42,253 bases of DNA from Rhizobiaceae bacterium (GCA_041743855.1 JBGTLX010000071.1:1-42253); one strand, 5' to 3'. Counted from the stretch's first letter, positions 8,837 through 42,253 are shown. Translations and numbers: made by a program. The notes: generated by a model not told the origin, from the letters alone.

Positions 8837-8838
8837 CC

Positions 8839-10859: not shown

Positions 10860-11127
10860 ACCAATTCCAGGAGAAGTGGGAACCGGTTTTCCGTCCGGTA
10901 TTGCGACAAAAAAAGAAGTTATAAGAAGACAGGAAGCAACCAGGGGCTGCCGGCCGCAGGCGCGGCGTCGGAAACGAAGGTGATCGAGGAGCAGACGATG
11001 TAACGATCGAACGCGCACGGCAATATTGCTGTGCGTGAGGTGGGTTTATTTGTGATTTTACGCCGGCGGGCTCGAATGCTCGTCGCCAGCGTCTGAAGAG
11101 CTTTAGCCCGACTTTCGCGTCGATGCA

Positions 11128-12570: not shown

Positions 12571-12592
12571 CGACAAGGCAAGGAGGAAAATC

Positions 12593-13901: not shown

Positions 13902-13913
13902 GGAGACGAAGCC

Positions 13914-14852: not shown

Positions 14853-14911
14853 TCAGGGCTGACATTCCGGTTCCAGCCGGGCAGAATGAATTCCAATCAA
14901 GGAGAACGAGC

Positions 14912-18492: not shown

Positions 18493-18499
18493 GATCGCC

Positions 18500-22225: not shown

Positions 22226-22292
22226 AATCCTGTCGTGTTCCTATTTGATGGATCACCGAGCCGTATGGGCGGCCGGAATGGGAGAGCGAAGC

Positions 22293-23198: not shown

Positions 23199-23271
23199 CT
23201 GGATCGGCTTCACATTCGACAGAACATGCAGGCGGCGCTACCGTCGCCGCCTGCTGAAACAGGAGGTCGCC

Positions 23272-23574
23272 ATGTGCTCGAGCTGCGGGTTTCCGGCTGC
23301 CCCCGGTCACTGGACCGAGGCAGGCGCGGCAAGCGCGCCCGACCGGCTGCGCGCGCGTTTCCGGCGCGTTCAGGTGCTCCAGTCTGTCCTTCCGGCCTAT
23401 GGTCTGGCCGCGCATGACGGCGCTCAGGTGCCCGGCATCCAGATCTCGACGCTTTCCGGCGACCATACGATCGTGCGCGATCTCGAAGAGGTCTGGGCGG
23501 CGGCCGAACGGCTTTTCGGCCGCCCCGTCGATCCGCTCGACCCGCACTTCCTCGGCGAGGACGAGGCCGACTAG
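23272..23574 (+). CDS. conserved-looking hypothetical small protein with N-terminal CxxC (MCSSCGFPAAPGHW...)
   Basis: 100 codons. AGGAGG SD 5 nt upstream of the ATG at 23272, and the stop overlaps the COG0523 GTG start. I recognise no family. Confidence 0.55.
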   Translation: MCSSCGFPAAPGHWTEAGAASAPDRLRARFRRVQVLQSVLPAYGLAAHDGAQVPGIQISTLSGDHTIVRDLEEVWAAAERLFGRPVDPLDPHFLGEDEAD

Positions 23575-24560
23575 TGCTGGGCGATCCTGATGGCCGTATG
23601 CGGCTCACCGTGCTCGGCGGATTTCTGGGCTCGGGCAAGACGACTTGGCTGCGGCACCAGTTGCATGACGGGTTGCTGAAGGACGCCTATGTGATCGTCA
23701 ACGAGGCTGCGGAAACGCCGGTTGACGATGCGCTGCTGTCGCGGGCTGCCAATCTTTCGGTGCTCGCCGGAGGCTGCGCCTGCTGCGATGGCAAGGCGGA
23801 TCTCATCGCGCTGCTCCGCCGCCTTTGCGACGAGCGCAGCCGAACCGAATCGGACTGCAGGCGGCTCGAGCGCATCGTGCTGGAAACCAGCGGGCTTGCC
23901 GAGCCCGGGCCGATCGTCGAGGCCATCCGCGCCGATCCTGTTCTCGTTCATCACATCGTCGTTAGCGAGATCGTCGTCGCGGCCGATGCGCTGCACGCGC
24001 TGACGCAGCTCCGTACCGAACCGCTTGGGCGCCGTCAGGTCGAGATGGCGGACCGACTGGTCGTCACCAAGGTGGACGAGGCCGGCGAAAACGCTCTCGC
24101 GCGCCTGCTGGCCACGCTTCGCGTGGTCAATCCGGGCGCGGCGATCTCCGCCGCTGTCCAAGGCTCGTCCGTTGCGCTGCCTGAATTCGCAGGAGTGGAG
24201 GCTGAGTATCTTGCTGATCTGTCTGGTGGTGAAACGCGGCCCTCGATCTTTCCGACCAGGCTGATGCTGGACGAAACGATCGACTGGACTGCATTCAGCG
24301 TCTGGATGTCGGCGCTGCTGCATGCGCGCGGCGACGACGTGCTGCGCGTCAAGGGGGTGGTGAGGACGCCGGCCGGCCGGCTTCTGCTCCAGAGCGTACG
24401 CAAGATCGTGCAGTCGCCGGAGATCCTGCCGGAGCAGGAAAACGGCCCTGACCGCGAGGACGACACGATCGTTGTGATCGGCAGGGGCTACCGGCCCCAG
24501 GATCTCGAACGCTCGCTGCGTCATTTCGCTGGGGCGCGACTATCAAGGGGGCTGCCGTGA
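23574..24560 (+). CDS. COG0523 / CobW-family G3E P-loop GTPase (putative metallochaperone)
   Basis: Walker A GGFLGSGKTT, metal motif GCACCD (CxCC), ETSGLAEP switch and VTKVD (NKxD-like), plus a CobW C-terminal domain (RVKGVVRT). An alternative start is ATG 23598 (MRLTVLGG). Confidence 0.85.
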   Translation: MLGDPDGRMRLTVLGGFLGSGKTTWLRHQLHDGLLKDAYVIVNEAAETPVDDALLSRAANLSVLAGGCACCDGKADLIALLRRLCDERSRTESDCRRLERIVLETSGLAEPGPIVEAIRADPVLVHHIVVSEIVVAADALHALTQLRTEPLGRRQVEMADRLVVTKVDEAGENALARLLATLRVVNPGAAISAAVQGSSVALPEFAGVEAEYLADLSGGETRPSIFPTRLMLDETIDWTAFSVWMSALLHARGDDVLRVKGVVRTPAGRLLLQSVRKIVQSPEILPEQENGPDREDDTIVVIGRGYRPQDLERSLRHFAGARLSRGLP

Positions 24561-25177
24561 CCAGCGACGATGTCTATCGCCAGCAGCAGTTCGGCCAGAA
24601 GACCGGCTTCGGCAAGACGCCGGCGCTTCTGGTCGTCGATTTCGTCAACGGCTTCACCGATCCCGAAATCCTCGGCGGCGGCAACATCCTGGACGCGGTG
24701 GCAGCCACGGTCCCGCTGCTGGGTTTCTTCCGCGCGCGCAAGCTCCCGGTCATCTTCACGCGCATCGTCTATGCCGACGACGGATCGGATGCAGGCATTT
24801 GGTGCCAGAAGGTGCCGCGCCTGCGCGACCTGACCGAGAACGCGCCGGCGAGCCAGGTCGTGGCGACGCTCAACCCCTGCGCCGGCGAGTTGGTCATCCG
24901 CAAGACGCAGGCTTCGGCCTTTTTCGGCACGCATCTTGGCGCCTGCCTGATCTCGAAGAGCATTGACACGCTTGTGGTTGCGGGGTGCACGACCAGTGGT
25001 TGTGTCCGCGCCAGCGTGATCGACGCGATGAGCATGAGCTACCGGACGGTCGTCGCCACCGACTGCGTCGGCGATCGTGCGATCGAACCGCACCGCGCCA
25101 ACCTCTTCGACATCGGCCAGAAATATGCCGACCTTCTGGCGGCCGAAGAAATCACTGCCGCGCTCGCTCGCGCCTGA
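24557..25177 (+). CDS. isochorismatase-family cysteine hydrolase (N-carbamoylsarcosine amidase-like)
   Basis: 206 aa. Asp-Lys-Cys triad contexts are ALLVVDFVNGF, VIRKTQASAFFGT and LVVAGCTTSGCVRASV. The start overlaps the COG0523 stop (GTGA). Confidence 0.82.
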   Translation: MTSDDVYRQQQFGQKTGFGKTPALLVVDFVNGFTDPEILGGGNILDAVAATVPLLGFFRARKLPVIFTRIVYADDGSDAGIWCQKVPRLRDLTENAPASQVVATLNPCAGELVIRKTQASAFFGTHLGACLISKSIDTLVVAGCTTSGCVRASVIDAMSMSYRTVVATDCVGDRAIEPHRANLFDIGQKYADLLAAEEITAALARA

Positions 25178-25318
25178 CGCTGCCTCAATAAGGGCGAGTG
25201 CGTGAAGCCCCGCCGCCAGCACCCGAATGCCGTCGACGATGTCAGGCATCGAGGAGAATTCTTGCGGCGTATGGCTGCGGCCGTCCTTGCTGCGCACGAA
25301 GATCATCGAAACCTTGGC
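25178..25318 (-). pseudogene. 3'-terminal remnant of an M20 amidohydrolase (N-carbamoyl-L-amino-acid / allantoate amidohydrolase-like)
   Basis: The minus-strand reading AKVSMIFVRSKDGRSHTPQEFSSMPDIVDGIRVLAAGLHALALIEAA matches the conserved C-terminal block of this family. Everything upstream is cut off by the ISL3 end at 25319. Confidence 0.55.
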
Positions 25319-26250
25319 GGGTCTTCCTCAAAGTGTGTGGTAGTTGGGCGGATGGAGCGGCAGCATTCTTGCTCGCAGAAGTTCAGCGCTTGCGCGACCA
25401 TACATTGCGCGTGTGAGGGTCTTCAGCCTGTTGACCTGCCCTTCGGTCTGGCCGTTGCTCCAGGTTGCTCAACGGCATTCCTCACAGCATCGAGGTCTCG
25501 GTTCAGCGTTCGGACGAAGCGCTGCATGGCATAGATGCCCATCTCAGATGCATCGTCCAGCCAGTCTTCCAGCTTCGAAACATCTTTGCTCCGGAAAATG
25601 CCATGAAAGCGCATGGCAAGGCTGCACATTACGGCGAAATCTCGCGAGGCTTCCTTCAGGGCATCGACCTTTGCCGCTTGCTCTGCTGTCAGCAACCCTC
25701 GCGGCTTGACGACGCAAAGTGCAGCAGCGACGATCGGCGATATCACATGGCCGGTTGCGGGATCCAAGACGCGGATCCGGGTCGGGGCCGATGGCGCGAC
25801 GATCGTGGAGGCTAAGGGAGCAATGTCCGTTCTTGCATCGTTGGCGCGTCGCCACGTGGTCAGAAGCCGCTCCAGGTTCGAGAAGCTGCAGGTGTAACCG
25901 CGACGTTTGATCTCGTCGAACAGATCGCGACCTCGGACACCACCGTCGTTCCGACGCTGCGATAGATACTCGTGGAAATAGCGGGGCGTACTCGGTCGCG
26001 GCGCGGCTGGGCGTCGGTCCGGAGGTGCATCGAACTTGAGCCATTTTGCAATGGTGCGCCGACCGAAGCCGGTTTGTCGAGCAATGTTGTCGATAGACAT
26101 TCCCGTGTCACGGAGGGTTCGCATTGTGTCAAAGACGGCTTGCCTTGAGTCAAAGACGGCTTGCCTTGAGTGGCGGTGCGTCTGCCGGGCAAGCTGCCGT
26201 CGCGTCAACATCGTGCGTTGCACACCCGTCAGGTGGAGGCGGTGAAGTGT
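25319..26250 (-). mobile_element. ISL3-family IS, copy C: 3' portion only, degenerate
   Basis: Terminal repeat GGGTCTTCCTCAAAGTGTGTGG at 25319. Transposase C-terminal blocks are GYTCSFSNLERLL, ATGHVISPIVAAALC and WSNGQTEGQVNRLKTLTRAMYGRASAELLRARMLPL. There is a 1-nt frameshift before WSNG. The inner boundary (~26250) is approximate. Confidence 0.75.
26128..26169. repeat. perfect 21-bp tandem duplication inside ISL3 copy C (GTCAAAGACGGCTTGCCTTGA x2)
   Basis: Read directly. It is in frame and duplicates SRQAVFD in the transposase remnant. Copy A has a single RQAVFE at the homologous place. Confidence 0.95.
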
Positions 26251-26600
26251 CAGGGGAACACCTATCGCTACCAGGCAATCCGGCGTGGGAAGGTGTGGTC
26301 GGTTCGTGTCAGTGCATGGTCCGGCGACATCGTCAGCGCGCGCGCGATTGGCTACTACTGAGGTCGATTTCTTCGGGTTCGGTCGGTTGCGCCTGTCAGA
26401 TACTGAGATCAGATGCCTGGTCCCTTTGCGTTTACACCGGTGCGCCATGCCTCGCAGAATGAATATGCCATCTCGGTTTCGCGTGACAGTGGTTGCGCTT
26501 TGCGGCCTACATTCTTGGCGGTCCGTCGTTTACTGTTGGTGTAGATATGTCGGTACTCGCGGGACATCTCCACTAAGCTCCCAATTCTTGGGCGAAGAAG

Positions 26601-28111: not shown

Positions 28112-29194
28112 ATGTCGATCAATCCCGTTTCCGTCCTGAAGAGCCGGGCACGGGCTGTCGCGGCAGCGACAGCGCTCGTCTCCGTGCTCGCCGGCGCCGG
28201 CGCGGTTTCGGCGCAGGAGCTGAATGCGCTGATCTGGTGCGACCACGCCGATCCGGCATTGCTCCAACCATTCGAAGAGGCCAACGGCGCCAAGGTCAAC
28301 ATCAAGGAGTTCGAGGGCACCGGGGCCGGCCTCGCCATCGTCGAGCAGTCGCAGCCTGGCGACTGGGACGTCATGGTCATCGATTCGATCGACGTGCGGC
28401 GCGGCGTCGAGAAAGGCCTGTTCGAGGCGCTCCCGGAAGACCAGTTGCCCTTTGCCGACCTGTTTTCCGAGGTGAAGATGGACGGCGCGACCGTGGTCGA
28501 CGGCAAGCGCTACGGCATCACCGAGAAATTCGGCTACAACACGATCGGCTTCAACAACGCCAAGGTCGATCCGGCCGACATGCAGTCGCTGGCTTCACTT
28601 ACCGATCCGAAGCTTAAGGGCCGCATCGCCATCTACGACTATTACCTCCCCGTCATCGGCATGGCAGCGCTTTCCATCGGCAAGAAGACGGCCGAACTCA
28701 CCGAGGCCGACCTTCCGGCCCTGAAGGAGGTGCTTTTAAAGATGAAGGCCAACTCGAAGCTCGTGGGCGATGTCGTCGCCAGCCAGACGGCGCTGGCCAC
28801 CGGCGAGGTGGATGTTCTGGTCGGCGGTGGCGAGTGGGTCACGGCGGGTCTTGCGAAGGAGAACCCTGCGCTCGATTTCTCGATTCCGGCGGAAGGCGCG
28901 GTGCTATGGTCGCAGTCGCTGGCCATGTTCAAGGATTCCAAGAACAAGGAGCTTGCGCTCAAGTTCATCCAGTATGTGATGAGCCCCGACGGCCAGGCGC
29001 GCCTTGCCACCTCATCCTGCTACTGGGGCATGCCGGCCAGCACCAAGGCGGCGCTGACCGACGAGCAGAAGAAGACGCTGCGCTTCGACGAGCAGCCCGC
29101 CTTCCTCGCGCGCGCCCAGCCCTACCCCTCGCCCGACGCCGACCTCGACAAGAAAATGCAGGATCTCTGGACAGAAATGCTGCAGGCGCAGTGA
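28112..29194 (+). CDS. ABC transporter periplasmic substrate-binding protein (PotD/PotF-like)
   Basis: Sec signal MSINPVSVLKSRARAVAAATALVSVLAGAGAVSAQE, 360 aa, GGGAGAA SD. Confidence 0.82.
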   Translation: MSINPVSVLKSRARAVAAATALVSVLAGAGAVSAQELNALIWCDHADPALLQPFEEANGAKVNIKEFEGTGAGLAIVEQSQPGDWDVMVIDSIDVRRGVEKGLFEALPEDQLPFADLFSEVKMDGATVVDGKRYGITEKFGYNTIGFNNAKVDPADMQSLASLTDPKLKGRIAIYDYYLPVIGMAALSIGKKTAELTEADLPALKEVLLKMKANSKLVGDVVASQTALATGEVDVLVGGGEWVTAGLAKENPALDFSIPAEGAVLWSQSLAMFKDSKNKELALKFIQYVMSPDGQARLATSSCYWGMPASTKAALTDEQKKTLRFDEQPAFLARAQPYPSPDADLDKKMQDLWTEMLQAQ

Positions 29195-30042
29195 GCGCTG
29201 GCGTAAGCGCGATTTCCAACCGCGCGCTTCCCTGGGCGCTGGTGACGCCGGCGCTCGGCTGGACCCTGCTGTTCTTCGCGCTTCCCTTCGTCGGCATGGG
29301 GTTCCTCAGCCTCACATCGCTCGATGGCGATGGCCTAAGCCTGGACAATTACGCGCAGTTCTTCGCCAACCCGTCCTACCGCCAGGCGCTGGTCAATTCG
29401 CTGGAAGTGACCGCAAGCGTCACGATCGTGTCGGTCCTGCTCGCCTATCCCTTCGCCTGGATTTTGGCCGAGCAGATTCCGCTGCGCTACCAGCGCGCAG
29501 CGCTTCTACTTGCGGTGCTCCCGTTCTGGACATCTTATGTCGTGCGTTCCTATTCATGGCTTCTGGTGCTGGCTCAGAACGGCGTGGTCAACCGAGCGCT
29601 GATGGGATCCGGGCTTGTCACCGAACCCATGCAACTCGCCAACACCCGGTTTGCCACCGTCACCGGCTTCGTACATTTCTTCATCATGCTTTTGACGCTG
29701 ACGATCTTCGCCAATCTGAAGCAACTCGGTCCGAGTTACCGCAAGGCCGCCGCCGACCTTGGCGCGGGGCCGGTACGGACTTTCCTGCATGTCGTGCTGC
29801 CGCTGACGCTGCCCGGCATCATGGTGGGCGCATTCCTCACCTTCGTTCTGGCGATCGGCGATTACATTACGCCGCAGATCCTCGGCGGCAACAATGAGTT
29901 GCTGATGCCGCAACTGATCATGATGCAGATCGGGCGGCGCGGCGACCTGCCGCTCGCCTCCTCGCTTTCGATCATCCTGATGGCGGTGGTCACCATCGCC
30001 TATCTCGCCTGCGCGCGCTGGCTGAAGATCGAGCGGACCTGA
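29191..30042 (+). CDS. ABC transporter permease
   Basis: The GTG start overlaps the SBP stop (GTGA). It is hydrophobic with EAA-type loop LGPSYRKAAADLGAGPVRTF. The long upstream ORF extension (from 28834) was rejected. Confidence 0.82.
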   Translation: MSAGVSAISNRALPWALVTPALGWTLLFFALPFVGMGFLSLTSLDGDGLSLDNYAQFFANPSYRQALVNSLEVTASVTIVSVLLAYPFAWILAEQIPLRYQRAALLLAVLPFWTSYVVRSYSWLLVLAQNGVVNRALMGSGLVTEPMQLANTRFATVTGFVHFFIMLLTLTIFANLKQLGPSYRKAAADLGAGPVRTFLHVVLPLTLPGIMVGAFLTFVLAIGDYITPQILGGNNELLMPQLIMMQIGRRGDLPLASSLSIILMAVVTIAYLACARWLKIERT

Positions 30043-30043
30043 C

Positions 30044-30826
30044 ATGCGCCGCACCATGAAAATCCTGTCGGCTCTCTATGCCGTGCTGATCTACGGCTTC
30101 ATCTTTCTCCCCGTAGTCGTGCTCGTGCTGTTTTCGCTGCAGGCGACGTCCTTTCCGATACCGCCCTTCACCGGTCCATCGACGCGCTGGTACGAGGCCG
30201 TGCTATCGGACGCGCGCCTGACTTCGGCGCTCGGCAATTCGCTTGTAGTCGCAGCGCTGTCGTCGCTTGCAGCCGTCTTGCTCGGCTTTCTGGCGGCATG
30301 GGGCTTTGCGCGGTTCCATCTGCCGCGCGCCGCTTGGCTGCGCGGCCTGATCACCCTGCCCCTGACTGTCAGCTATCTCATCATCGGCATGGGGTTGCTT
30401 GTCGCCTTCAACTGGGCCGGCATTCCCAAATCGCTCCTTTCGGCCGGCATCGGCCATGTCGTCATCAACCTTCCGCTCTGCTTCGCCATCATCTACAGCC
30501 AGATGGGCGACCACCAGATCGGCATCGAGCGGGCGGCGCGCGATCTCGGCGCGCCGGAATGGAAAGTGCTGATGCTGATCACCGCGCCGGTGATGGCCCC
30601 GGCGATCTTCGCAGCCTTCTTCCTTTCGATGACCTTCTCCTGGGACGAATTCGTGATCGCCTTTCTGCTGACCCGCTTCGACACCACCCTGCCGGTCGAG
30701 ATCTGGAACCTCATGCGCTCCGGCCTCAATCCGAAGACGAACGCGGTCGGCTCGCTCGTCTTTGCGGTCTCGATCCTCGTCGTTGTCGCCCTCGAAATCG
30801 CGCTTCTGCGCCGAAGGCATCCATGA
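30044..30826 (+). CDS. ABC transporter permease
   Basis: 260 aa, hydrophobic, with EAA-type loop IGIERAARDLGAPEWKV. Confidence 0.85.
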   Translation: MRRTMKILSALYAVLIYGFIFLPVVVLVLFSLQATSFPIPPFTGPSTRWYEAVLSDARLTSALGNSLVVAALSSLAAVLLGFLAAWGFARFHLPRAAWLRGLITLPLTVSYLIIGMGLLVAFNWAGIPKSLLSAGIGHVVINLPLCFAIIYSQMGDHQIGIERAARDLGAPEWKVLMLITAPVMAPAIFAAFFLSMTFSWDEFVIAFLLTRFDTTLPVEIWNLMRSGLNPKTNAVGSLVFAVSILVVVALEIALLRRRHP

Positions 30827-31890
30827 CCGCGCCGCTGGTCGAGGTACGCGCCGTCTCGCATCGGTTCGGACAGCAGACGGTCCTGAAGACCGTCTCGCTC
30901 AGCATCGATCCCGGCAGCTACACCGTTCTGCTCGGACCATCGGGCTCCGGCAAGACCACCTTGCTGTCGATACTGGGCGGTTTTGTCGTGCCGTCGGAAG
31001 GACGGGTGTTCATCCGCGGCGAGGATTGCACCGCGCTTTCGCCGGTCAGGCGCCCGACCACGACCGTCTTCCAGGACTACGCGCTGTTTCCGCATATGAG
31101 CGTCGGCGCCAATGTCGGCTTCGGCCTCAGGATGCGGGGCGTTGGCGCGTCCGAACGCGACGGACGCGCCCGCGACGCGCTTTCGCTGGTCGGCCTTGCA
31201 GACGCCTTCGACAAAAAGCCGCATCAACTGTCCGGCGGCCAGCGGCAGCGCGTGGCGCTAGCGCGTGCGTTGGTCGTCGAGCCGGCCGTGCTCCTTCTCG
31301 ACGAACCGCTGGGCGCGCTCGACCTGAAGCTGAGGCGGCAGATGCAGGACGAGCTGAAAGCCATCCAGCAACGCGTCGGCACAGCCTTCATCCATGTCAC
31401 GCACGACCAGGAGGAGGCTATGGCGCTAGCCGATCATTGCGTGGTGATGAACGAGGGCCGGATCGAGGACGAAGGTCCGCCTGAGCGGGTTTACGCGCTG
31501 CCGGCGACGCGCTTCACGGCGACTTTCATGGGCGAGAGCACGCTCCTGACCGGGCGCGTCGAAAATGCGGCGGACGGTTCTCTCGTGATGGCGACCGGCC
31601 TCGGCAGGATTGCGGTGTCAGGCAAAGCCACGCCGGGATCAGACATTGCCCTTGCGATCCGACCCGAAAACCTGACGCTTGGCACGCCGGTTTGTGGAAC
31701 GGACCTGGGGGAGGCGCAGGTTACCGACATCGTGTTCCAAGGAAGCTTCAAACGGGTTGTGGCAATTTCGACCGTCGATCCCGCGATCCGCTTCATCGTG
31801 AAACTTGCCGCCGATACCACGGTTCATCGCTTCGACCGCGTTTTCGTCTCCTGCCGCCCCGACAACCTCGTGCTGCTGGCCCAACCATGA
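30823..31890 (+). CDS. ABC transporter ATP-binding protein
   Basis: The ATG at 30823 overlaps the permease stop (ATGA). Walker A GPSGSGKTT, signature LSGGQRQRVALARA and Walker B LLLDEPLGALD. The upstream ORF extension (from 30298) was rejected. Confidence 0.9.
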   Translation: MTAPLVEVRAVSHRFGQQTVLKTVSLSIDPGSYTVLLGPSGSGKTTLLSILGGFVVPSEGRVFIRGEDCTALSPVRRPTTTVFQDYALFPHMSVGANVGFGLRMRGVGASERDGRARDALSLVGLADAFDKKPHQLSGGQRQRVALARALVVEPAVLLLDEPLGALDLKLRRQMQDELKAIQQRVGTAFIHVTHDQEEAMALADHCVVMNEGRIEDEGPPERVYALPATRFTATFMGESTLLTGRVENAADGSLVMATGLGRIAVSGKATPGSDIALAIRPENLTLGTPVCGTDLGEAQVTDIVFQGSFKRVVAISTVDPAIRFIVKLAADTTVHRFDRVFVSCRPDNLVLLAQP

Positions 31891-32861: not shown

Positions 32862-33356
32862 CTATTCCCCGTAAGGCACCCAGATGTTCTTTACCTGCGT
32901 TGCCCGGCGTAAATATTCGCGGCCCTGATTGTCATCGGATATCCAGTCGCGAGCACCACCGTTCCAGACAGGCTTGAGGTTGCCGGCGGACAGCTTGTCG
33001 ACCAGCGCTGCATCGCTTGCTGAGCCGAAGTTCCACAGCGCCGCGACCTCGTCGTGCTCGGCGAGTGTTTTGACGAGGCTCGCGGTCTCCCCGTTAATGA
33101 TGCTGGCCACGCCGGCAGGAACGTCGCTGGTGTCGAGTATCTGGTAGAAGTCGGTCGCCGCCAGGGGATAACGGCCCGACGGAACGGCAACGACGCGATT
33201 GCCAACGGCCAGCACGGCATCACTAGCGAGACGAAGCCGAGAAGCGGCGCTTCGTCCGGGCAGACAAGGCCGACAATTCCAAAGGGTGACATGTCGCGAC
33301 TTGGTCGAGTGCACGGCGCCGTCGTGCTTGTCGGCAAAGCCCGCGTAGAAGAAGGG
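32862..33356 (-). pseudogene. aldehyde dehydrogenase-family 3' remnant, truncated by ISL3 copy A and internally frameshifted
   Basis: Blocks FFYAGFADKHDGAVH...HVTL (frame X), PFGIVGLVCPDEAPLLGFVSLVMP (frame Y), and LAVGNRVVAVPSGRYPLAATDFYQILDTSDVPAGVASIINGE...NQGREYLRRATQVKNIWVPYGE (frame X again). The N-terminal majority of the gene is absent. Confidence 0.65.
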
Positions 33357-35107
33357 GGTCTTCCTCAATTTGCGTGGTTCATTCGCTGTTAGAGACGATG
33401 CCGCTATGCACGGCCATGCGAACAAAAACGAAATGGTCACCCGGCCCAGGGGTTAAAATACTGGGTGTCGCGCTCACTGATGATGACAGTTGGGTTGTTT
33501 CCGCTGCTGGACCAGCGTTCGGCATCTGCCCGGATTGAGGAAAGCGGACTCGAAATCGGCATTGCTGGTTCAACCGCAGCCTTCAGGATCTCCCGGTGCA
33601 GGGCAAAACCGTGACGGTGAAGATCCGGCTGAGCCGCTGGCGGTGTACCCAAGAGAAATGTCACCGACAAACGTTCGCCGACCGGCTACCGACGGTCGCT
33701 TCTCCTTTGCGCGTCGGACAAGGAGGGTCGCGGAGATTGTCGGTCTGCTCGGCCATAGCATGGGCGGCCGTCCTGGCGAACGCTTGATGGGGCGGCTCGG
33801 CATGCCGGTCAGCGATGACACTATCCTGCGGCAGCTGAAGCGAGCTGCCACGGTCGCTCACCTCAACTCCCCGGTTCGGGTTGTTGGCATCGATGACTGG
33901 AGCTGGCGGCGATCATGGCGCTACGGCACGATGATCGTGGACCTGGAGCGCCGTTCGGTAGTCGATCTCCTTGAGCACCGCAGCGTGGCGAGTACGGTGC
34001 AATGGCTGGAGCAGCACCCTTCCATTGACATCGTGAGCCGAGACCGATGTGGGATCTATGCGCAAGCTGCTCGCGAGGGCGCGCCGCAAGCGCTCCAAGT
34101 GGCTGATCGGTTCCATCTCGTTCAGAATCTTCGGAGCGCAATCGAGGAGCAAATGAGCCTTTCCGGACGTGCCACAGGGCGGCGGGCATTGTTGCCGGAT
34201 AATAGTACCGGGAGCGAGCAAGACGATCTGACCCAAGATTATCCGCACGTTGAAGCAAAACACAGGCGCCAGGTGCGCCATGCTCATCGACAATCGCGGC
34301 AGGCGGTGTTCGAGATGGTTCACTCGTTGCGCAAGGAAGGGCTGTCCTGTTCCGAGATCGCCCATCGTACCGGCTACGGTCGACGCAGCATCGCGAAATG
34401 GCTGACTTTCGACAAGCCACCCGACCGACACAGGGCGGCGTTGAAGCCGACTTCACCCTTATATTTCGAGGCGTTTCTCACCAGTGCTGGACAGATGGCA
34501 ATCGCTGCGGCCGACACCTGTCCACGATATCAAACAGCGCGGCTACATAGGCAGCTTCTCGAATCTCGAGCGACTGCTGGCAAGCTGGCGCCACGCCGAG
34601 AGGTCAGACAAGGACCGTGCGTTGCCAGTTCCGATCATACACCATCAACCAGCCGGCGATGCTATCCCGATACGCGATCCGGAGACCGGTCATGTGATTT
34701 CGCCGGTAGTCGCCGCAGCCCTCTGCATGAAGCCGCGAGGCATGCTGACGATCAATCAGGCGAGGAAGGTTGATGCTCTGAAGCAAGGGTCGCATGAATT
34801 TGTCGTGATGCGCAGCCTGGGCATGCGCTTCCGCGGCATTTTGCGGAGTCGTGACTTGAGTAAGCTCGACATTTGGATCGATGATGCCGTCAACTCCGGG
34901 CTCGTTGCCATCGTGCGTTTCGCGCGGGTCTTACGCCGTGACATTGACGCCGTTCGCAATGCCATTCAATTGCCGTGGAGTAACGGCCAGGCAGAAGGGC
35001 AGATCAACCGTCTGAAGACGATCAAGCGCGCTATGTTCGGCAGAGCAGGCCTCGAACTCCTCAGAGCCCGCATGTTACCACTCAACCACGCAAATTGAGG
35101 AAGACCC
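33356..35107 (+). mobile_element. ISL3-family IS, copy A: full length with both ends, transposase inactivated
   Basis: Perfect 24-bp terminal inverted repeats GGGTCTTCCTCAATTTGCGTGGTT (33356-33379, reverse complement at 35084-35107). Transposase blocks are RWRCTQEKCHRQTF, VVGIDDWSWRR, ADRFHLVQNL and WSNGQAEGQINRLKTIKRAMFGRAGLELLRARMLPL. It is disrupted by an in-frame TGA (CPD*) near 33536 and frameshifts near 33700 and 34490. Confidence 0.85.
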
Positions 35108-36490
35108 GATCGGAGTCGATCGCATCGTCAATCCACGCATCCAGTGGTGCCGATCTCTTGCCGCGAAGGATGCCGTTGAAGCGCATCGCCAGGCGTCGCA
35201 TCTCGGCGAAAGCGTGAGATCCCTGCTTCAGGGCATCGACCTTCCTTGCCTGCCGGTCTGTCAACAGGCCTCGCGGCTTGATGCACAGCGCTGCGGCAAC
35301 CACTGGCGAGATCGCATGACCGGTTTCCGGATCTCGAACCGGCTCCGACTTCCACGTGTCGGGCGACACATCAACGGCCTGCTCTCTTTCGACCCGCCGC
35401 CAAGCCCCGAGAAGCCGCTCCAGATTGGCGAAACTGCCGGTTTAGCCTCGCTGTTTGACGTCATGAAACAGCTGCCGTCCGCAGCGGTTACCATCCTTCC
35501 AACATTATACCATGGCGATGTGGGATTCAGCGCTGCTCGCCGCCTGTCTGGCGGAGCCTTGAACTTGAGCCAATTCGCTACGCTACGACGTTTCATAGCC
35601 GGTCCGCCGGGCGATTTCGCTGTAGGACAGACCCTCCGCGCGCAAAGCGTGGATCTTTTCGAATATCTCCCGGCGAGATTGCCTATGTGCTAGAAGGGCG
35701 CGCCGGCGATGTGTGGCAGCGTCAACAATCGCGTCTTCCGACAGGATGGCCCTGCCAGTGGCACGTCCAGAAAGGCTCATCTGTTCTTCGATTGCCGAGC
35801 GAAGGTTCTGGATCAGATGAAACCGATCGGCTACCTGCCGGGCCTGCGGTGCGCCTTCACGGACGGCCTGCGCATAGAGACCACAGCGGTCCCGGCTGAC
35901 GACCTCGACGGAAGGGTGGTCACGCAGCCACTTGGCCGCACTCTCGACGCTGCGATCGTTCAGTATGTCGACAACCGAGCGACGCTCGAGATCAATCATG
36001 ATGGTCCCATAGTTTGTCGCACGCCGCCAACTCCAGTCATCGATGCCAACCACCCGGACCTCCGAATTGCGGTGAGTAACGGCCGCATCCCGCTTCAACT
36101 GCCGCAGGATGGTGTCGTCGCTGATCGGCATGCCGAGCCGTTGCATCAAGCGTTCGCCAGGACGGCCGCCCGTGCTGTGGCCCAGCAATCCGACAATCTC
36201 AACAACCCTCGTCGTCCGGCGCGCATACGGAGCAGCGGCTTGCCCTGGACCGGCAGATCCTGGAGGCTACGGCTGGACCAACCGTGCCGATTTCGGCTTT
36301 GCCGTCGACAATCGGGACAAATGCCGATCGCAGACCCGGCGGCGGAAACAACCCAGCCGTCATCAACGGTGAGCGCGACACCCAGTATCTTGACCCCTGG
36401 GCCAGGCGACCATTTCGTTTTCGTTCGCATGCCCGCCAATAGCGACCCGTCGCTAATGGCGAATGAACCACACAAAGTGAGGAAGAACCC
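35108..36490 (-). mobile_element. ISL3-family IS, copy B: 3'-truncated and degenerate
   Basis: Left-end repeat GGGTTCTTCCTCACTTTGTGTGGTT (reverse complement of 36466-36490). The N-terminus ILGVALTVDDGWVVSAAGSAIGICPDCRRQSRNRHGW is intact. There is a ~30-codon internal deletion after LPVQGKP, further frameshifts and a stop. Homology ends abruptly at WIDDAIDSD, exactly where copy A ends, so about 210 bp and the right repeat are missing. Confidence 0.8.
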
Positions 36491-36751
36491 CAAATCCGGC
36501 GATCGGCCAAAATCCTAGCCCGTGGGTGGTCGACTTCCAGAGCCGCTTACTTTGCTCCGAAAATACGTTTGGTCCAAGTTCAAATTTTATGTCCAGCATC
36601 TCCTTTGACGGAGACCCGTTGCAGGCTTTTAACATCTGGAGGTATTGAGAAATGGGCCAGATTGTAGTGCCTTTGATCTCCGGCCTGCAACATTGGTGCT
36701 GCGACGATGTTCGCGCTAGTATTAGAAGAGCGATGCGGGTCATAACGCTCG

Positions 36752-39700
36752 ATGCAGACGATTGAGGATTGGCTGAGCCAACTCGGCCTTGGCAAATACA
36801 TGGAGGCGTTCGTCCAGAACGACGTCGACCTTCGAGCGCTTCCGCACATCACGGAAGCCGACCTGCAGGAGCTTGGTGTCTCGCTCGGGCACCGGAAAAT
36901 CATTCTGGCTGCCATTAATGAACCTGAGCGGCCGCGCCTCGATGCACTCCCTCTTGCTTCACTTCCTCTCGAGGGATTTGAGCCTCAGACCACCGAAGTC
37001 CCGCAGGAACCGACTGCCGATCGACGGCTTCTCAGTGTGCTCTTCTGTGACTTGGTCGGGTCGACCGCGCTATCGGCGGAACTCGACCCGGAAGACATGC
37101 ACGAATTGACCCGCCGCTATCAGGATAGCGTCGCCGGCGCGATCACGCGCTTTGGCGGCTATGTCGCCAAATATCTCGGAGACGGCGTGCTTGCTTATTT
37201 TGGATGGCCCATGGCTTACGAGGACCATGCCGAGCGTTCCATTAGGGCAGGCATCCAGGCGCTCGCTGCCGTCGAGGCCTTTCAGTCGCCGGACGGCAAG
37301 CAATTGAAGGCGCGTATCGGCATCGCATCGGGGCACGTGGTCGTCGGCGACATTGCCGGCAGCAGCGCGAACGAACGCGCCTCGATCGCAGGCGACACTC
37401 CCAATCTCGCAGCTCGCCTGCAAGGCGCTGCAGCGCCTGGCCAGATCGTGGTAGCGGACAGCACGCGCCGGCTCGCCGGGCAGTCCTTCGAGATCGAGAG
37501 CCTCGCTGCACAGGAGTTAAAAGGGTTCAAATCACCTATTGCCCTGTTCGCAGTCCGCGGCGAACGAGAGGTGGAAAGCCGTTTCGACGCCACGCACACC
37601 AGCGCGCTGTCGAAATTTGTTGGCCGAACCAGTGAAATCGGCATGCTGCTCGAACGTTGGGAACTGGTTAAGGGCGGCCAAGGCCAAGCGGTCTTCGTGT
37701 CGGGAGAGGCGGGCATCGGGAAATCGCGCCTTGTCGATGCGCTCGAGGAACGGCTCCCTGAGAAACAGCATGAGCTGATTCGGTTGCAGTGTTCTCCCTA
37801 TCACGCAACATCGGCCTTCTATCCTATAATTCAGCGCCTAAGCAGGTTCGCAGGCTTCTCACCAGCCGACGATCAAACCATGCGCGCGGAGAAATTCCGC
37901 ACGATCGTTCAGCGCTACGGGGAGAATCTTTCGGATGTCGGATCGATCTATGCCGAGCTCCTTTCATTGGACGTCGGCGACGAGTTCAAGCCGCTCGACC
38001 TCTCCGCCCAGCAGCGCAAGGAACTCGTCGTCCGAACGCTGGCAAACCGGCTGCTGCTCGCGGCGAAGATCGCTCCGTTGCTGTTTATCGTCGAGGATGC
38101 GCACTGGATCGATCCGTCGACTAGTGAATGGCTGAAAGAGGTTATTAGCCGCGTGCATGGCGCGGCCATACTTGTCGTCGTGACGCACCGACCGGAATGG
38201 AACGCTGGTTGGGCAACTGGGCTCGCACAAGCGACGACGCTCGCCATCGGGCGTCTGACGAAGAAGCAGATGCGTGAGCTGATCGAATCGATGCTTGCCG
38301 ATGTTCCGGATCAGCTTGCCGACAGGATCGCGGAGCGAACGGACGGGGTACCGCTGTTCGTTGAGGAGCTCACTCGCTCGATCCTGGAGAGCGGAAACGC
38401 GACGTCGCTCAACGCTGAGATCCCTGATAGTCTGCAGGGCTCTCTGATGGCGCGGCTCGATCGTCTAACAGCGGCAGCCAAGGAGGTGGCGCAAATTGCC
38501 TCTGTGATAGGTCGTGAATTCGATCGTGGCCTGCTTTCGAAGGTTACCGGTTTTGACGAGCGGGCTCTGGACGGAGCGCTGCATCAACTCATGTCGACCC
38601 AACTCTTCGTCGTCGGCGGCGTGGTGCGGGACGCACTTGTTTTCCGCCATGCGCTCATCCAGGATACGGCGTATCAATCGCTCCTCAGCCGGCGGCGCCG
38701 GCATTATCACGAAGCCATAGTTAAGGTTCTCCTCGACGCATATCCCGATCTCGTCGTCACACAGCCCGAGCTCATCGCCCAGCACTACGTCAAGGCACAG
38801 CAAAATGAGCTTGCGTTCCCATACTGGATGAAGGCCGGCGAACGCGCGCTAGGACGATCCGCCAACTACGAGGCGGTCGATCATTTTCAGAACGCTCTCT
38901 CCATCGTGGAGCACTTGCCGGAAGGACCTTCCCAGCAACAAAAAGTGCTCGAGGCGACCATAAAGCTCGGTGAGGCACTAGGCGCCGCAGGTCGCTTGTC
39001 GGACTCCGTGGCAACATATAAGTTAGCAACGGAATTGGCGCGCGAGGCCGGCGACACGAAGGCCTTCATCCGTTCCGCGCTCGGTTTTGATCTCGCCCAA
39101 TTCCTTTCCGCGAAGCCGCTCGACGAATCGATTAAGCTTCTGACGGAAGCGATGGGCAAAATCGATCCGAACGATCAGCGGTCGCGGTGCCAGCTTCTCT
39201 GCAGCCTCGCGCGCGCATATTCCTACCTCGGCGACAGCAAGAATAGCGCGAAATGTCACAAAGAGGGAGTTAAGCTGGCTGGGCAGCTTGGTGACAAAAA
39301 TTCGCTTTTCGATTTGTCCGTTCTTTCTTTCATGACCCCGATGACCGTCAAGTCCGTTACGGAAGCAAACGATCGAACCGCTCTCCTAGACGATCTAAAG
39401 CGCCTTTCGGCCGGCATCAACGACGACGACGCGCGGGGCCGGGCACTTGCACTCGACGTCTACGTCTCCACCGAACTGGGCAACCGCGCGCGAGCTGATC
39501 GAGCGGTTGATGAGTTGGAAGAACTGGGGACGCTGCGCCAGCGCCTCAACATTCTATGGCTTGCTCGGCACGCGCGGGCCATGACGGCCATCCTCGATGG
39601 CAGATTTACGGCTGCGGAGGCACTTGCTGGAGAAGCGATGAGCCTAGGCAGAAAGACGCATGGGGCGGATGTCGAGGGCGTTTATGGAATGCAGATGTTC

Positions 39701-40306
39701 ACGATCCGACGCGAACAGAGCCGCCTCTCGGAGGTCGCACCGGTTATGAAGCATTTCATCGAGGAAAATCCGGACGAGACCACTTGGTTGCCGGGTTTTG
39801 CGCTCGTTGCGGCGGATTTGGGCTATCGGGATGCAGCGCAGCGAAGGTTAGATGAACTGGCGAGCACCGGATTCGCAATGCCGCTCGATGCGAAGCGAAG
39901 TGCGTCCCTCTCATTTATATCGGAAGTCGCCGTCGACCTTGGTGACACAGAGGCTGCCCAGAAGATCTACGACCTGATGCTCGCCTACAAAAACATGACC
40001 ATCACGGCAGGTGTCGCAACTGTCTGCTTTGGAGCGGCGAGCCGCTATCTGGGAATGTTGTCAGCCACGCTAGGCGACTTCGAGAAGGCGGCCGAGCACT
40101 TCGAGCATGCGTTGGAAATGAACGCAGCAAGCGGCTCACGACCGTGGCTTGCCCATGCCCAGGCCGAATATTCCAATCTGCTTCTCAAAATCGGTAGCAA
40201 GAAAGCGATCGAGAGAGCAATGTCTCTATCGGAAGAAGCCTCGGTAACCGCAGCCGAACTGGATATGGTCCGCTTGAAGAAAAGGTTACAGCCGACCCTG
40301 CATTAG
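36752..40306 (+). CDS. SAM domain / class III adenylate-guanylate cyclase / STAND (AAA_16-type) ATPase / TPR-repeat multidomain protein
   Basis: 1184-aa uninterrupted ORF. SAM-like aa 1-57. Cyclase core aa ~92-268 (LSVLFCDLVGST, VAKYLGDGVLAYFG, RIGIASGHVVVGDI, AGDTPNLAARLQ, ELKGFKSPIALFAV). P-loop VFVSGEAGIGKSRL and Walker B LLFIVEDAHWID. Long helical-repeat C-terminus. Weak SD; in-frame stop 9 nt upstream of the ATG. Confidence 0.88.
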   Translation: MQTIEDWLSQLGLGKYMEAFVQNDVDLRALPHITEADLQELGVSLGHRKIILAAINEPERPRLDALPLASLPLEGFEPQTTEVPQEPTADRRLLSVLFCDLVGSTALSAELDPEDMHELTRRYQDSVAGAITRFGGYVAKYLGDGVLAYFGWPMAYEDHAERSIRAGIQALAAVEAFQSPDGKQLKARIGIASGHVVVGDIAGSSANERASIAGDTPNLAARLQGAAAPGQIVVADSTRRLAGQSFEIESLAAQELKGFKSPIALFAVRGEREVESRFDATHTSALSKFVGRTSEIGMLLERWELVKGGQGQAVFVSGEAGIGKSRLVDALEERLPEKQHELIRLQCSPYHATSAFYPIIQRLSRFAGFSPADDQTMRAEKFRTIVQRYGENLSDVGSIYAELLSLDVGDEFKPLDLSAQQRKELVVRTLANRLLLAAKIAPLLFIVEDAHWIDPSTSEWLKEVISRVHGAAILVVVTHRPEWNAGWATGLAQATTLAIGRLTKKQMRELIESMLADVPDQLADRIAERTDGVPLFVEELTRSILESGNATSLNAEIPDSLQGSLMARLDRLTAAAKEVAQIASVIGREFDRGLLSKVTGFDERALDGALHQLMSTQLFVVGGVVRDALVFRHALIQDTAYQSLLSRRRRHYHEAIVKVLLDAYPDLVVTQPELIAQHYVKAQQNELAFPYWMKAGERALGRSANYEAVDHFQNALSIVEHLPEGPSQQQKVLEATIKLGEALGAAGRLSDSVATYKLATELAREAGDTKAFIRSALGFDLAQFLSAKPLDESIKLLTEAMGKIDPNDQRSRCQLLCSLARAYSYLGDSKNSAKCHKEGVKLAGQLGDKNSLFDLSVLSFMTPMTVKSVTEANDRTALLDDLKRLSAGINDDDARGRALALDVYVSTELGNRARADRAVDELEELGTLRQRLNILWLARHARAMTAILDGRFTAAEALAGEAMSLGRKTHGADVEGVYGMQMFTIRREQSRLSEVAPVMKHFIEENPDETTWLPGFALVAADLGYRDAAQRRLDELASTGFAMPLDAKRSASLSFISEVAVDLGDTEAAQKIYDLMLAYKNMTITAGVATVCFGAASRYLGMLSATLGDFEKAAEHFEHALEMNAASGSRPWLAHAQAEYSNLLLKIGSKKAIERAMSLSEEASVTAAELDMVRLKKRLQPTLH

Positions 40307-40356
40307 GCTTGGCTCGGCTTCGCGGCATCAACACGGATGACAAGGAGCTTACCTTC

Positions 40357-40617
40357 ATGCCACGCTACGTTATTGAACGAGATTTTGCGGAACAGCTCAA
40401 CCTCACGAAGGGCGCGGTTGAGAACGTCAATTTGATCAATGACCAGGAGGGCGTGCAGTGGATCTTCTCTTTCCTTAGCGCCGACAAGAAAAAGACCTAT
40501 TGCCTCTACGAGGCGCCGAACCCTGAAGCTATTCGGGCCGCGGCACGAAGAAACAATATCCCCGCGGATGCGATCATTGAAATTGGCGGGGAGATTGGGC
40601 CGAACATGTTCGAGTAG
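40357..40617 (+). CDS. DUF4242-like small protein
   Basis: 86 aa from MPRYVIERDF, with AAGGAG SD. GVQWIFSFLSADKKKTYCLYEAPNPEAIRAAARRNNIPADAIIEI matches my memory of the DUF4242 pattern. The upstream 16 codons of the ORF were rejected. Confidence 0.65.
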   Translation: MPRYVIERDFAEQLNLTKGAVENVNLINDQEGVQWIFSFLSADKKKTYCLYEAPNPEAIRAAARRNNIPADAIIEIGGEIGPNMFE

Positions 40618-40647
40618 CCACACCTCATGTCGCTTGACACTTAACCT

Positions 40648-42253
40648 GGTTCTGCCTCAATTCGTGTGGCTGAGCGGTAGCATCGCGCGCGGATTAGCTC
40701 GACACCGGCTCGACCATACATTGCGCGCTTGAGTGTCTTGAGGCGATTTATCTGGCCTTCGGCCTGTCCATTGCTCCATGGAAGCTCGATAGCGTTGTAG
40801 ACGACATCGATGTCTCGGCGCAGCACCCGGGCAAATCGCATGACCGGGATGAGTTCAGAGTCGATAGCGTCCTCGATCCACGCTTCCAATGGTTCCGACC
40901 TGCCGCCGCGCACTATTCCATTGAAGCGCATCGCCAGGGTGCGCATCGTAGCGAACGCGTGCGATCCCTTCTCAAAGGCATCGACTTTCGTGCCTGTGAA
41001 GTGGTCAACAATCCTCGTGGCTTGATGCACAGCGCTGCCGCGACCACAGGCGAAATCGCGTGGCCGGTATGTGGATCTCGAACTGGACCAAGATCGACGG
41101 TGCTTGGGGGCGGCTCATCCGTTGCCGGCCTGTCAGCCCTGCGCCATGCTCCAAGCAGTCTCTCCAAGTTTGAGAAGCTGCCTGTATATCCGCGCTGTCT
41201 GACATCATGGAAGAGATGCCGCCCGACGCGATTTCATCCTCCCAGCACTGAGCAAGGAACGCCTCGAAATACCATGGCGATGTCGGGTTCAATGCCGCTC
41301 GACGCCTATCCGGCGGCGTCTTTAATGTGAGCCATTTGGCCACGGTGCGACGTTTGTAGCCCGTCCGGCGGGCGATCTCGCTATAGGTGAGCCCTTCATC
41401 GCGCAACGCATGGATTGCTTTGAACACTTCTTCGCGCGATCGTCGATGCGCAAAGCGCGCCAGACGACGATGGGCCGCGGCATCGATGTTGTCCTCTTCG
41501 CTCAGGATCGATCGGCCTGCCGCTCGTCCCTGCGAGGTTCATCTGTTCCTCGATCGCCGTTCGAAGGTTCTGGACGAGATGAAACCGGTCGGCGACCTCT
41601 ACTGCTTGCGAAGCGCGTTCTCAGACCGCCTGCGCATAGAGGCCACAGCGATCCGGGCTGACCACTTCAACGGAAGGATTCTTCTTCGGCCAGTTCGCGG
41701 CGCTCTCGACGCTTCGATCTTCCAGAACGTCAATGACTGCGCGCCGCTCAAGATCAACAATAATCGTGCCGTAGCGGGATGACTTCTTCCAACTCCAATC
41801 GTCCAGCCCAATGACCCGGGCGGGAGAGGCATTAATTGCGGCGTCCCGTTTGAGTTGGCGCAAGATCGTGTCATCGCTGACCGGTTCCGAAACGTCGCAT
41901 CAGGCGTTCGGCAGGCCGTCCCCCCGGTGGCATGGCCCAAGTGACTGGCGATTTGCGCCGATCGCAGCGTCCTTCGGGCATGAGGAGCGGCAACAGTGGG
42001 AGCCTGATCGGAAAAGGTGCTGCGGCTACAGCCTTGAGACAGACATCGCCAGCGAGCGATGCGGAGTTCTAAGAATACAGCCTCGCCATGCGCCGGGTAG
42101 TCCTGAAGCCGTCTGTCAACGGGCGCCGAAGTTTCCCCGATTGTGGGCGTGTAAAATTCTTTATCTTGGCGGCGGGTCTTGGTCGGTGATCAGCCGAGGG
42201 ATTGATCGTCGCGTCCTTTCGTTGGAGGGCGGCCGCGCCGTTTCGGCAGGGTT
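40648..42253 (-). mobile_element. ISL3-family IS, copy D: degenerate, runs off the right edge
   Basis: Right-end repeat GGTTCTGCCTCAATTCGTGTGG at 40648. Transposase blocks are scattered over all three minus frames (LELRIARWRCLSQGCSRSTF, LGHATGGRPAERLM, VIGLDDWSWKK, LTYSEIARRTGYKRRTVAKWL, HTGHAISPVVAAALCIKPRGLL, LPWSNGQAEGQINRLKTLKRAMYGRAGVELIRAR). The left end is not reached within the window. Confidence 0.78.

Follow-up and report, generated by a model that had tools for sequence, protein, structure and literature searches.

A DUF4242 protein is coupled in genomes to the C-terminal sensor module of a SAM-cyclase-STAND protein from a Rhizobiaceae bacterium and to relatives of that module with other outputs

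We analyzed a 42,253-nucleotide (nt) stretch of DNA from a Rhizobiaceae bacterium (GCA_041743855.1, JBGTLX010000071.1:1-42253; hereafter the window), which carries a gene for an 1184-amino acid (aa) protein and, 50 nt downstream on the same strand, a gene for an 86-aa protein of the DUF4242 (SCO4226-like) family. The large protein joins a sterile alpha motif (SAM) domain, a class III nucleotide cyclase domain, a STAND P-loop nucleoside triphosphatase (NTPase) and a helical-repeat region that ends in a module of about 255 aa, here called the C-module. The DUF4242 partner is strictly coupled to the C-module in genomes, and this coupling survives exchange of the cyclase for LuxR, SARP, XRE helix-turn-helix (HTH), Ser/Thr kinase and OmpR-cyclase outputs. 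With slightly better than even confidence, we read the large protein as a cytosolic nucleotide cyclase of class III, most likely an adenylate cyclase, whose activity a MalT/LAL-type STAND switch controls; DUF4242 would be a sensor partner on the input side of that switch. The parts of the pair lie as follows.

36752..40306, + strand: SAM-cyclase-STAND-alpha-solenoid protein, 1184 aa (open reading frame (ORF) list, Pfam, phmmer against the PDB, AlphaFold2 (AF2), Foldseek)
36755..36922, + strand: SAM domain, aa 2-57 (Pfam)
37031..37552, + strand: class III cyclase catalytic domain, aa 94-267 (Pfam)
37613..38155, + strand: STAND P-loop NTPase (AAA_16), aa 288-468 (Pfam)
38852..39538, + strand: TPR-like helical repeats, aa 701-929, variable and with the lowest conservation of all structured parts
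39539..40303, + strand: C-module, aa 930-1184, the terminal sensor module
40304-40306, + strand: stop codon of the cyclase gene
40342-40347, + strand: Shine-Dalgarno sequence AAGGAG, 9 nt 5' of the DUF4242 start codon
40357..40617, + strand: DUF4242/SCO4226-like protein of the STAND-linked clade, 86 aa, ATG at 40357

A genome scan with one genome per GTDB species returned 80 loci, in which all ORFs were translated and DUF4242 was sought by phmmer and then with a hidden Markov model (HMM) built from the matches. The large protein matched the query end to end in 40 of these loci (36-87% identity), and in all 40 the next gene downstream on the same strand encoded DUF4242; the gap, measurable in 37 of the loci, was 19-96 nt. 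These orthologues come from Mesorhizobium-like metagenome-assembled genomes (MAGs), Rhizobium, Bradyrhizobium, Xanthobacteraceae, Reyranella and Geminicoccaceae, from at least six genera of the Roseobacter group, from Paraburkholderia/Caballeronia and from one Mycobacteriaceae MAG. The adjacency first noticed in an earlier reading of this DNA (the sequence-only reading) therefore holds well beyond close relatives, down to 36% identity and across alpha- and betaproteobacteria and one actinobacterial MAG. The other 40 loci held paralogues that matched only from aa 1 to about 780 (39-45% identity), with SAM, cyclase and NTPase but a different C-terminus. No DUF4242 was found in any paralogue locus within the fetched flanks, seven of which had less than 700 nt downstream, and clustering of the flanking ORFs gave no conserved partner gene for the paralogues. 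Adjacency in 40/40 orthologous versus 0/40 paralogous loci is far beyond chance.

An HMM of the C-module (aa 930-1184) scored 312-416 bits in 40/40 DUF4242-linked cyclases and at most 10 bits in 40/40 paralogues, while the motif QxFxxRREQ was present in all of the former and none of the latter. Because this HMM fully separates the two sets, DUF4242 is tied to the C-module and not to the SAM, cyclase or NTPase domains. The characteristic motifs of the module are GVYGxQMFxIRREQxRLxEVxP, WLPGFAL and GAASRYLG. At long range DUF4242 was the best conserved component: it kept 56-69% identity where the C-module had 35-48%, the NTPase domain 28-44% and the first stretch of TPRs 25-40%. Identity over aa 701-860 among orthologues was 25-59%.

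More distant DUF4242 copies, found by tblastn of DUF4242 against plasmids, accompanied proteins with a different output. The order in Ralstonia solanacearum was a divergent BBE-type flavin adenine dinucleotide (FAD) oxidase gene, DUF4242 and a gene for a 1021-aa AAA_16-TPR-GerE protein; Caballeronia had a 999-aa AAA_16-GerE protein two genes from DUF4242, and Deinococcus taeanensis an 870-aa AAA_16-TPR-GerE protein followed by DUF4242. The Ralstonia and Caballeronia LuxR-type proteins aligned with aa 285-1182 of the window protein at 29% and 28% identity (2e-82 and 2e-68), contained the C-module motifs and a C-terminal LuxR HTH, and lacked SAM and cyclase. Using an alignment of 11 LuxR-type proteins as the query for a metagenome census, we retrieved 80 loci. 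DUF4242 was adjacent in 49 of them and in 23 of the 30 that were complete (at least 700 nt on both sides), either upstream or downstream and on either strand. One metagenomic LuxR-type locus contained two DUF4242 copies (L125 4567-5352 and 7035-7301). In L153 one ORF seemed to fuse STAND, LuxR and DUF4242, and L151, L154 and L125 held long ORFs that contain DUF4242; all of these were rejected as out-of-frame, Arg-rich shadow ORFs, and since DUF4242 has its own Met in all four loci, there is no Rosetta-stone fusion.

The output range widened further when aa 800-1184 were searched against 1.84 billion representative proteins, with 12683 matches at E<=1e-3 and 738 at E<=1e-30. All 35 full-length representatives contained AAA_16; GerE was found in 11, Guanylate_cyc in 8, BTAD in 5, Pkinase in 3, HTH_3 in 3 and a receiver domain in 2. 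We looked up the contigs of 11 representatives, of which 10 were informative (the remaining contig stops 55 nt past the gene), and an SCO4226-like gene lay 23-88 nt downstream on the same strand in 7 of the 11. These seven comprised two SARP-type proteins, two XRE-HTH-type proteins (one with its partner cut by the contig end and confirmed by the HMM built here), one N-terminal-LuxR type, one Ser/Thr-kinase type, followed by an extracytoplasmic function (ECF) sigma factor and a BBE oxidase, and one OmpR-winged-HTH-cyclase type. Overall, DUF4242 often accompanies the C-module whatever the output type, although not universally. An 1812-aa receiver-domain STAND protein (P0278; L174 27-5465) with four tandem C-module-like stretches has no DUF4242 neighbour and is an exception to the pairing. 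The sequence-only reading had remarked on the lack of an HTH output, which is true of the window protein, where Pfam found no GerE and the C-module forms the C-terminus; however, relatives with the same NTPase-sensor-DUF4242 unit have an HTH domain of the LuxR, SARP or XRE type, or a kinase, in its place.

Within the window protein, Pfam recovered SAM, cyclase, STAND NTPase and TPR in the order proposed from the sequence, all above gathering scores: SAM_1 at aa 2-55 (1.7e-15, 57.6 bits; SAM_2, 51.9 bits), Guanylate_cyc (PF00211) at aa 94-267 (3e-20, 73 bits versus a cutoff of 21.9), AAA_16 at aa 288-468 (8e-20, 72.4 bits versus 32.6) and TPR_12 at aa 1098-1150. The NACHT and nSTAND models matched below threshold. 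By phmmer against the PDB, the SAM domain resembles those of Caskin, BICC1 and SHANK at about 1e-7; it is followed by a linker (aa 58-90) of low model confidence and 0-20% identity in distant orthologues. The cyclase domain matched Cya2 (2W01) at 3.6e-24 and also the rhodopsin-guanylate cyclase RhGC (5OYH/6SIR). Its key residues are D100, K140, D144, S211, N218, R222 and K257. D100 and D144 align with the metal-binding Asp residues of these solved cyclases, and N218 and R222 with their transition-state pair, in agreement with the roles already assigned to them. D100, D144 and R222 were invariant in 36 orthologues, as were the Walker A (GEAGIGKS, G318-S325; GxxGxGKS) and Walker B (EDAH, E448-H451) motifs of the NTPase. 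The window protein thus has its catalytic residues and both Walker motifs intact. K140 occupies a position that is Glu in the guanylate cyclases Cya2 and RhGC and Lys in their adenylate-cyclase-converted mutants. In the pair of residues that specifies the substrate, Lys with Asp or Thr denotes ATP, and Glu with Cys, Gly or Ser denotes GTP. Position 140 is Lys, the ATP type, in most orthologues, and the product is probably cyclic AMP (cAMP).

An AF2 model built on an alignment of 47 homologues had a mean predicted local distance difference test (pLDDT) score of 67, with 70-94 in the solenoid (aa 700-1184) and about 70 in SAM, which was modeled as five short helices at aa 4-55. The NTPase was followed by a helical/winged-helix arm to about aa 700. 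The model was all-helical from about aa 646 to 1184, with helical hairpins at aa 701-929 (pLDDT 70-93) and a predicted beta-hairpin in the C-module at aa 1083-1095. The sequence-only estimate of about 600 aa of TPR-like repeats was roughly right in extent, but TPR_12 was the sole TPR HMM past threshold. Foldseek against the PDB returned 6MFV, a Pyrococcus horikoshii STAND protein with a TPR sensor, as the best match (6.4e-12), followed by Avs3 and Apaf-1. The predicted fold fits a STAND nucleotide-binding oligomerization domain (NOD) with a repeat sensor.

The 86-aa protein matched PF14026 (SCO4226-like, formerly DUF4242) at 2e-20, with 73.2 bits versus a cutoff of 28.5, over profile positions 1-76 of 76, and its position and Shine-Dalgarno sequence were as first described. 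STAND-linked members share the signature IERxFA...NxxGxWxFSFLSADxxKTYCLYEA...PxD and an 8-residue deletion relative to unlinked members. Their one Cys, C49, is invariant across the whole family. There is no conserved His in the clade, and 57 of 95 members, the window protein included, have none at all. A shallow-alignment AF2 model of DUF4242 was poor (pLDDT 57) and had a beta-alpha-beta-beta-alpha-beta order; its best PDB fold match was SCO4226 (4OI6; probability 0.98, TM-score about 0.5). A phmmer search with the window protein against the PDB missed SCO4226, which leaves the Pfam match and this weak fold match as the only connections between the two. In a search with the D. taeanensis DUF4242, more distant genes of the family (31-36% identity to that query) from Paracoccus, Ilyobacter, Mycobacterium dioxanotrophicus and Deinococcus deserti had no STAND neighbour, so the STAND link belongs to one clade and not to the whole Pfam family. 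A TPR protein upstream of the Ilyobacter gene was considered as a relative of the C-module and proved unrelated (BLASTP E 0.13). On Ilyobacter pILYOP02 (L087) and the M. dioxanotrophicus plasmid (L088), the unlinked DUF4242 genes lie among copper/redox genes encoding multicopper oxidases, a cupredoxin, a cation transporter and copper membrane monooxygenase subunits, which hints at a metal or redox context for the unlinked branch. Several Streptomyces DUF4242 homologues of about 80 aa were named 'guanylate cyclase' in NCBI in 2014 (PMC4186839, Figure 2 legend), a name that may have been carried over from a neighbouring cyclase-STAND gene.

Clustering of flanking ORFs revealed only one further recurrent neighbour, an oxidase of about 470 aa with FAD_binding_4 and BBE domains (PF01565 and PF08031). 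It was adjacent in 24/40 DUF4242-linked cyclase loci (L001, L002, L005-L009, L011-L013, L015, L017, L020-L026, L028-L031 and L039) versus 2-3/40 paralogue loci, with varying position and orientation. On a Ruegeria plasmid, cyclase, DUF4242 and oxidase genes share one strand. The oxidase was also present at the Ralstonia LuxR-type locus, on the kinase-type contig and in the nearest Mesorhizobium relative; a tblastn search found no match in the window, and the Rhizobium orthologues likewise lack it. Coordinates of four copies are listed here.

5353-6729 of L081: BBE-type oxidase
7376-8791 of L085: BBE-type oxidase
6270-7652 of L170: BBE-type oxidase
9086-10465 of L175: BBE-type oxidase

In the window, the pair is bordered on both sides by insertion sequence (IS) elements of the ISL3 family, with part of its native upstream region retained.

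33354..36491, strand not given: left flank with two diverged transposase pieces of the ISL3 family that lie tail to tail (megablast annotations)
36492..36751, + strand: native upstream intergenic region of the cyclase gene, retained (MAFFT alignment with a relative)
40641..42253, - strand: right flank, ISL3-family transposase copy; the end coordinate is that of the window (direct repeats)

The left pieces are bounded by 44-nt inverted repeats (33354-33397 and 36448-36491, 86% complementary). The right copy has the same orientation as the 35082-36491 copy and is 76-84% identical to it (direct repeats D1-D4), and its tail abuts the DUF4242 stop codon. Homology to relatives spans 36492, just past the IS inverted repeat, to 40620. 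Given these limits, ISL3 elements have taken the place of the oxidase side and have inserted immediately behind the DUF4242 stop codon. The upstream region aligns, from directly past the IS end, with an intergenic region of Mesorhizobium sp. GCA_004961265.1 (L170), and in relatives the homologous region separates the cyclase gene from a divergent BBE-type oxidase gene. A first blastn comparison had left only 44 nt of native upstream sequence, a figure overturned by the MAFFT alignment, which extended it to about 260 nt. The pair has a GC content of 58.5% versus 62.8% for bases 1-33353; its IS borders and its lower GC were both seen correctly in the sequence-only reading. GC at third codon positions (GC3) of the cyclase gene is 0.67 versus 0.80-0.86 in four other window genes; such an atypical codon composition suggests that the gene differs in its history or its expression. 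In its geometry, the arrangement of three diverged ISL3 copies around the pair resembles a composite transposon.

Elsewhere in the window, a catabolic and transport cluster at 2447-16366 encodes hydantoinase/oxoprolinase A and B, a solute-binding protein with ABC permease and ATPase, an amidase, a 3-hydroxyisobutyrate-dehydrogenase-like protein, a nitrilase-family CN hydrolase and an amidohydrolase. A family III CoA-transferase gene lies at 19657-21162 (-) and a second ABC system at 28112-31887. Long ORFs of 724, 378, 329, 317, 261 and 341 aa without a Pfam family at 1e-5 are located at 221-2392 (+), 17650-18783 (+) and 22227-26448 (-); some may be wrong-strand shadow ORFs in GC-rich DNA. As reported before, no cyclic nucleoside monophosphate (cNMP)-binding domain was found among 20 large window ORFs, a check that was not exhaustive.

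The closest known systems include MalT and the LAL proteins, large ATP-binding regulators of the LuxR type that are bacterial STAND transcription factors; in them, too, an arm and a helical-repeat sensor come after an AAA_16-type NOD. Pfam TPR_MalT matches are precomputed for close homologues of the window protein, and the LuxR-type proteins are direct relatives of its NTPase and sensor (28-29% identity, aa 285-1182). Unlike MalT/LAL proteins, the window protein has its output at the N-terminus, as SAM and cyclase, rather than as a C-terminal HTH, and its small dedicated partner is DUF4242, a protein that the MalT system lacks. MalT activity, too, is modulated by partner proteins, namely MalK, MalY and Aes. 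The mycobacterial cyclases Rv0386, Rv1358 and Rv2488c likewise place a class III cyclase N-terminal to an AAA_16 STAND NTPase and helical repeats, but the window protein lacks their C-terminal LuxR HTH, has an extra N-terminal SAM domain and carries the canonical Lys at K140. PH0952 of P. horikoshii (6MFV) shares the NOD and TPR sensor of the window model, at 13% identity and a TM-score of 0.22-0.33, which is low because of the multi-domain arrangement; it has no cyclase, SAM domain or known DUF4242 partner. The top NCBIfam match was the TOMM system kinase/cyclase fusion (TIGR03903), at 393 bits over aa 85-734. The cyclase and STAND core is shared, but the score is below the cutoff of 705.75, SAM stands in place of the kinase with no Pkinase domain, and there are no TOMM genes nearby.

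STAND proteins such as MalT, Apaf-1 and Avs respond to sensor occupancy with relief of autoinhibition, exchange of ADP for ATP and oligomerization of the NOD. Class III cyclase active sites form at a dimer interface, and the enzymes are active only as dimers, so induced proximity could switch the cyclase on. SAM domains commonly self-associate and could reinforce clustering. The sensor module keeps its DUF4242 partner in six output contexts or more, and for this reason we place DUF4242 on the input side. In the proposed mechanism, DUF4242 would bind the C-module as a co-sensor, ligand carrier or anti-activator, and its state would be set by a small molecule or redox cue, perhaps, more speculatively, one tied to the BBE-type FAD oxidase; a metabolite or redox input is suggested because the oxidase is often in the same locus. 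The state of DUF4242 would then decide whether the STAND domain exchanges ADP for ATP and oligomerizes, oligomerization aided by SAM would bring cyclase domains together, and the resulting cAMP would be read by Crp/Clr-type regulators encoded elsewhere. More tentatively, and at somewhat less than even confidence, we propose that STAND-linked DUF4242 and the C-module of about 255 aa form a hitherto unrecognized, portable two-protein input device of bacterial STAND ATPases, in which the ferredoxin-like protein reports metabolite or redox state, possibly an oxidase product, by binding the C-module and so gates cAMP synthesis, Ser/Thr phosphorylation or LuxR/SARP/XRE transcription.

Several observations weigh against the reading of the pair as a DUF4242-gated adenylate cyclase. 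Position 211, the second substrate-specifying residue, is Ser in the window protein and Gln or Ala in orthologues rather than Asp or Thr, so the product of the cyclase is not certain. Six Paraburkholderia/Caballeronia orthologues (L032, L033, L035, L037, L045 and L072) carry K140L and N218I, which points to a degenerate or altered cyclase. These orthologues retain both metal Asp residues, R222, the Walker motifs, the C-module and DUF4242; in this lineage the cyclase may be inactive or re-purposed, and catalysis may not be the output everywhere. The AF2 cyclase domain was of low confidence (pLDDT below 50) because the alignment was shallow, and so supports no structural statement on the active site. 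Pairing also failed in 7/30 complete LuxR-type loci, where C-module scores were 54-134 bits versus mostly 135-287 bits with DUF4242, and in 3/10 informative representative look-ups: a receiver-domain STAND protein with four module-like stretches and, with only 264-284 nt downstream in both cases, a double STAND protein and an AAA_16-TPR protein with an extra C-terminal extension. A promoter and terminator scan gave nothing above shuffled expectation and no sigma-70-like promoter upstream of the cyclase gene. Finally, a small gene beside a STAND transcription factor can mean a regulator and its target.

This last point leads to the main alternative, which we consider unlikely: DUF4242 would be an output or target whose expression or activity the STAND protein controls, with adjacency reflecting co-regulation. 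Placement on either side and either strand in LuxR-type loci is typical of regulator-target pairs, and there is a precedent in afsS, which lies just 3' of afsR and is activated by AfsR. However, the link follows the sensor C-module and not the output; paralogues with the same SAM, cyclase and NTPase have no DUF4242; cyclase and kinase proteins without a DNA-binding domain keep DUF4242 in an operon-like arrangement (gaps 19-96 nt); and a regulator-target relationship would need to be re-invented for each output type. It is improbable that the pair in this window is a decaying passenger, stripped of its context by IS rearrangement and no longer expressed or functional. In favour of it are the ISL3 copies at either end of the pair, the loss of the neighbouring oxidase gene and a scan that detected no promoter-like site. 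Against it, neither ORF is truncated or disrupted, every catalytic and signature residue is present, some 260 nt of the native upstream region survive, and the oxidase is absent from Rhizobium orthologues as well.

Metal sensing, in which DUF4242 loaded with nickel or another metal activates the STAND switch, appears quite improbable. The Pfam family is named for SCO4226 of known structure (4OI3/4OI6), its type member, which nickel causes to self-aggregate in vitro (PMC4186839), and some unlinked DUF4242 genes lie near copper-related genes. The window protein shares the family and the beta-alpha-beta-beta-alpha-beta ferredoxin-like layout of SCO4226, but the four nickel sites of SCO4226 use His3, His12, His20, His23 and His76 with Asp43, Ser46 and Glu74, and five of these residues (His23, Asp43, Ser46, Glu74 and His76) are reported to be conserved only within Streptomyces (PMC4186839). 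Of those five, the window protein keeps only the Asp (D43), with its clade distinguished further by the deletion, signature and scarcity of His described above, and it scored 24.5 bits against the NCBIfam nickel-binding equivalog NF033706, whose cutoff is 125. Nickel binding and the 'nickel responsive' name are therefore not transferable. SCO4226 itself adjoins phoU and phoRP of the PhoRP phosphate regulon and not a STAND gene. The immune or conflict role hinted at in the sequence-only reading found no support, and we regard as very improbable an anti-phage system in which a STAND immune sensor raises a cyclic-nucleotide alarm with DUF4242 as effector or modulator. PADLOC PycC models of Pycsar matched the cyclase domain at up to 1e-17, Foldseek matched Avs3, and the pair is IS-flanked with low GC3. 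The PycC matches, though, cover the generic cyclase fold alone, and no cNMP-activated effector neighbour was conserved in the 40 loci. No PADLOC model of Avs (E<=0.01) or another defence STAND matched the large protein, on which there was only a weak sub-threshold TPR model (4.6e-4), and none matched DUF4242. Sensor and partner evolve slowly and are orthologous across classes, and neighbouring genes are metabolic or transport genes, the recurrent one being a metabolic FAD oxidase rather than a defence gene.

The SAM-cyclase-AAA architecture is already known, without characterization. A database search returned at least 8000 homologues of the 1184-aa protein, the top ones 87% identical and from Mesorhizobium, and the same Pfam architecture was kept down to 58% identity among the matches listed. 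Their database names include 'adenylate/guanylate cyclase domain-containing protein', 'AAA family ATPase' and 'class 3 adenylate cyclase/TPR repeat protein'. An over-representation of SAM domains in root-nodule bacteria was reported by Seshadri et al. 2015 (PMC4653623), who placed these domains in large PF00211 and PF13191 proteins without an assigned function. We found no physiological role for homologues in the searchable literature, in keeping with the earlier description of an uncharacterized sensor and second-messenger module with a DUF4242 partner. Nor did that literature, which does not cover subscription journals, describe a link of DUF4242, SCO4226 or PF14026 to STAND proteins, and the partner link between DUF4242 and the C-module appears to be the new part of the finding.

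Most large STAND, LAL and SARP regulators and STAND-fused cyclases have no known signal, among them many regulators of antibiotic clusters in actinomycetes and many of the rhizobial cyclases, which number in the dozens. A small, highly conserved partner that follows one sensor module offers a cheap and concrete experimental handle on these orphan STAND signals, and DUF4242 gains its first testable functional context, distinct from the 'nickel responsive' label in Pfam. A possible reason for the SAM domain on a bacterial cyclase also emerges: it may help the switch to bring together copies of an enzyme that works only in dimeric form. The coupling of DUF4242 to the C-module suggests that STAND switches have a route of signal input that has not yet been described.

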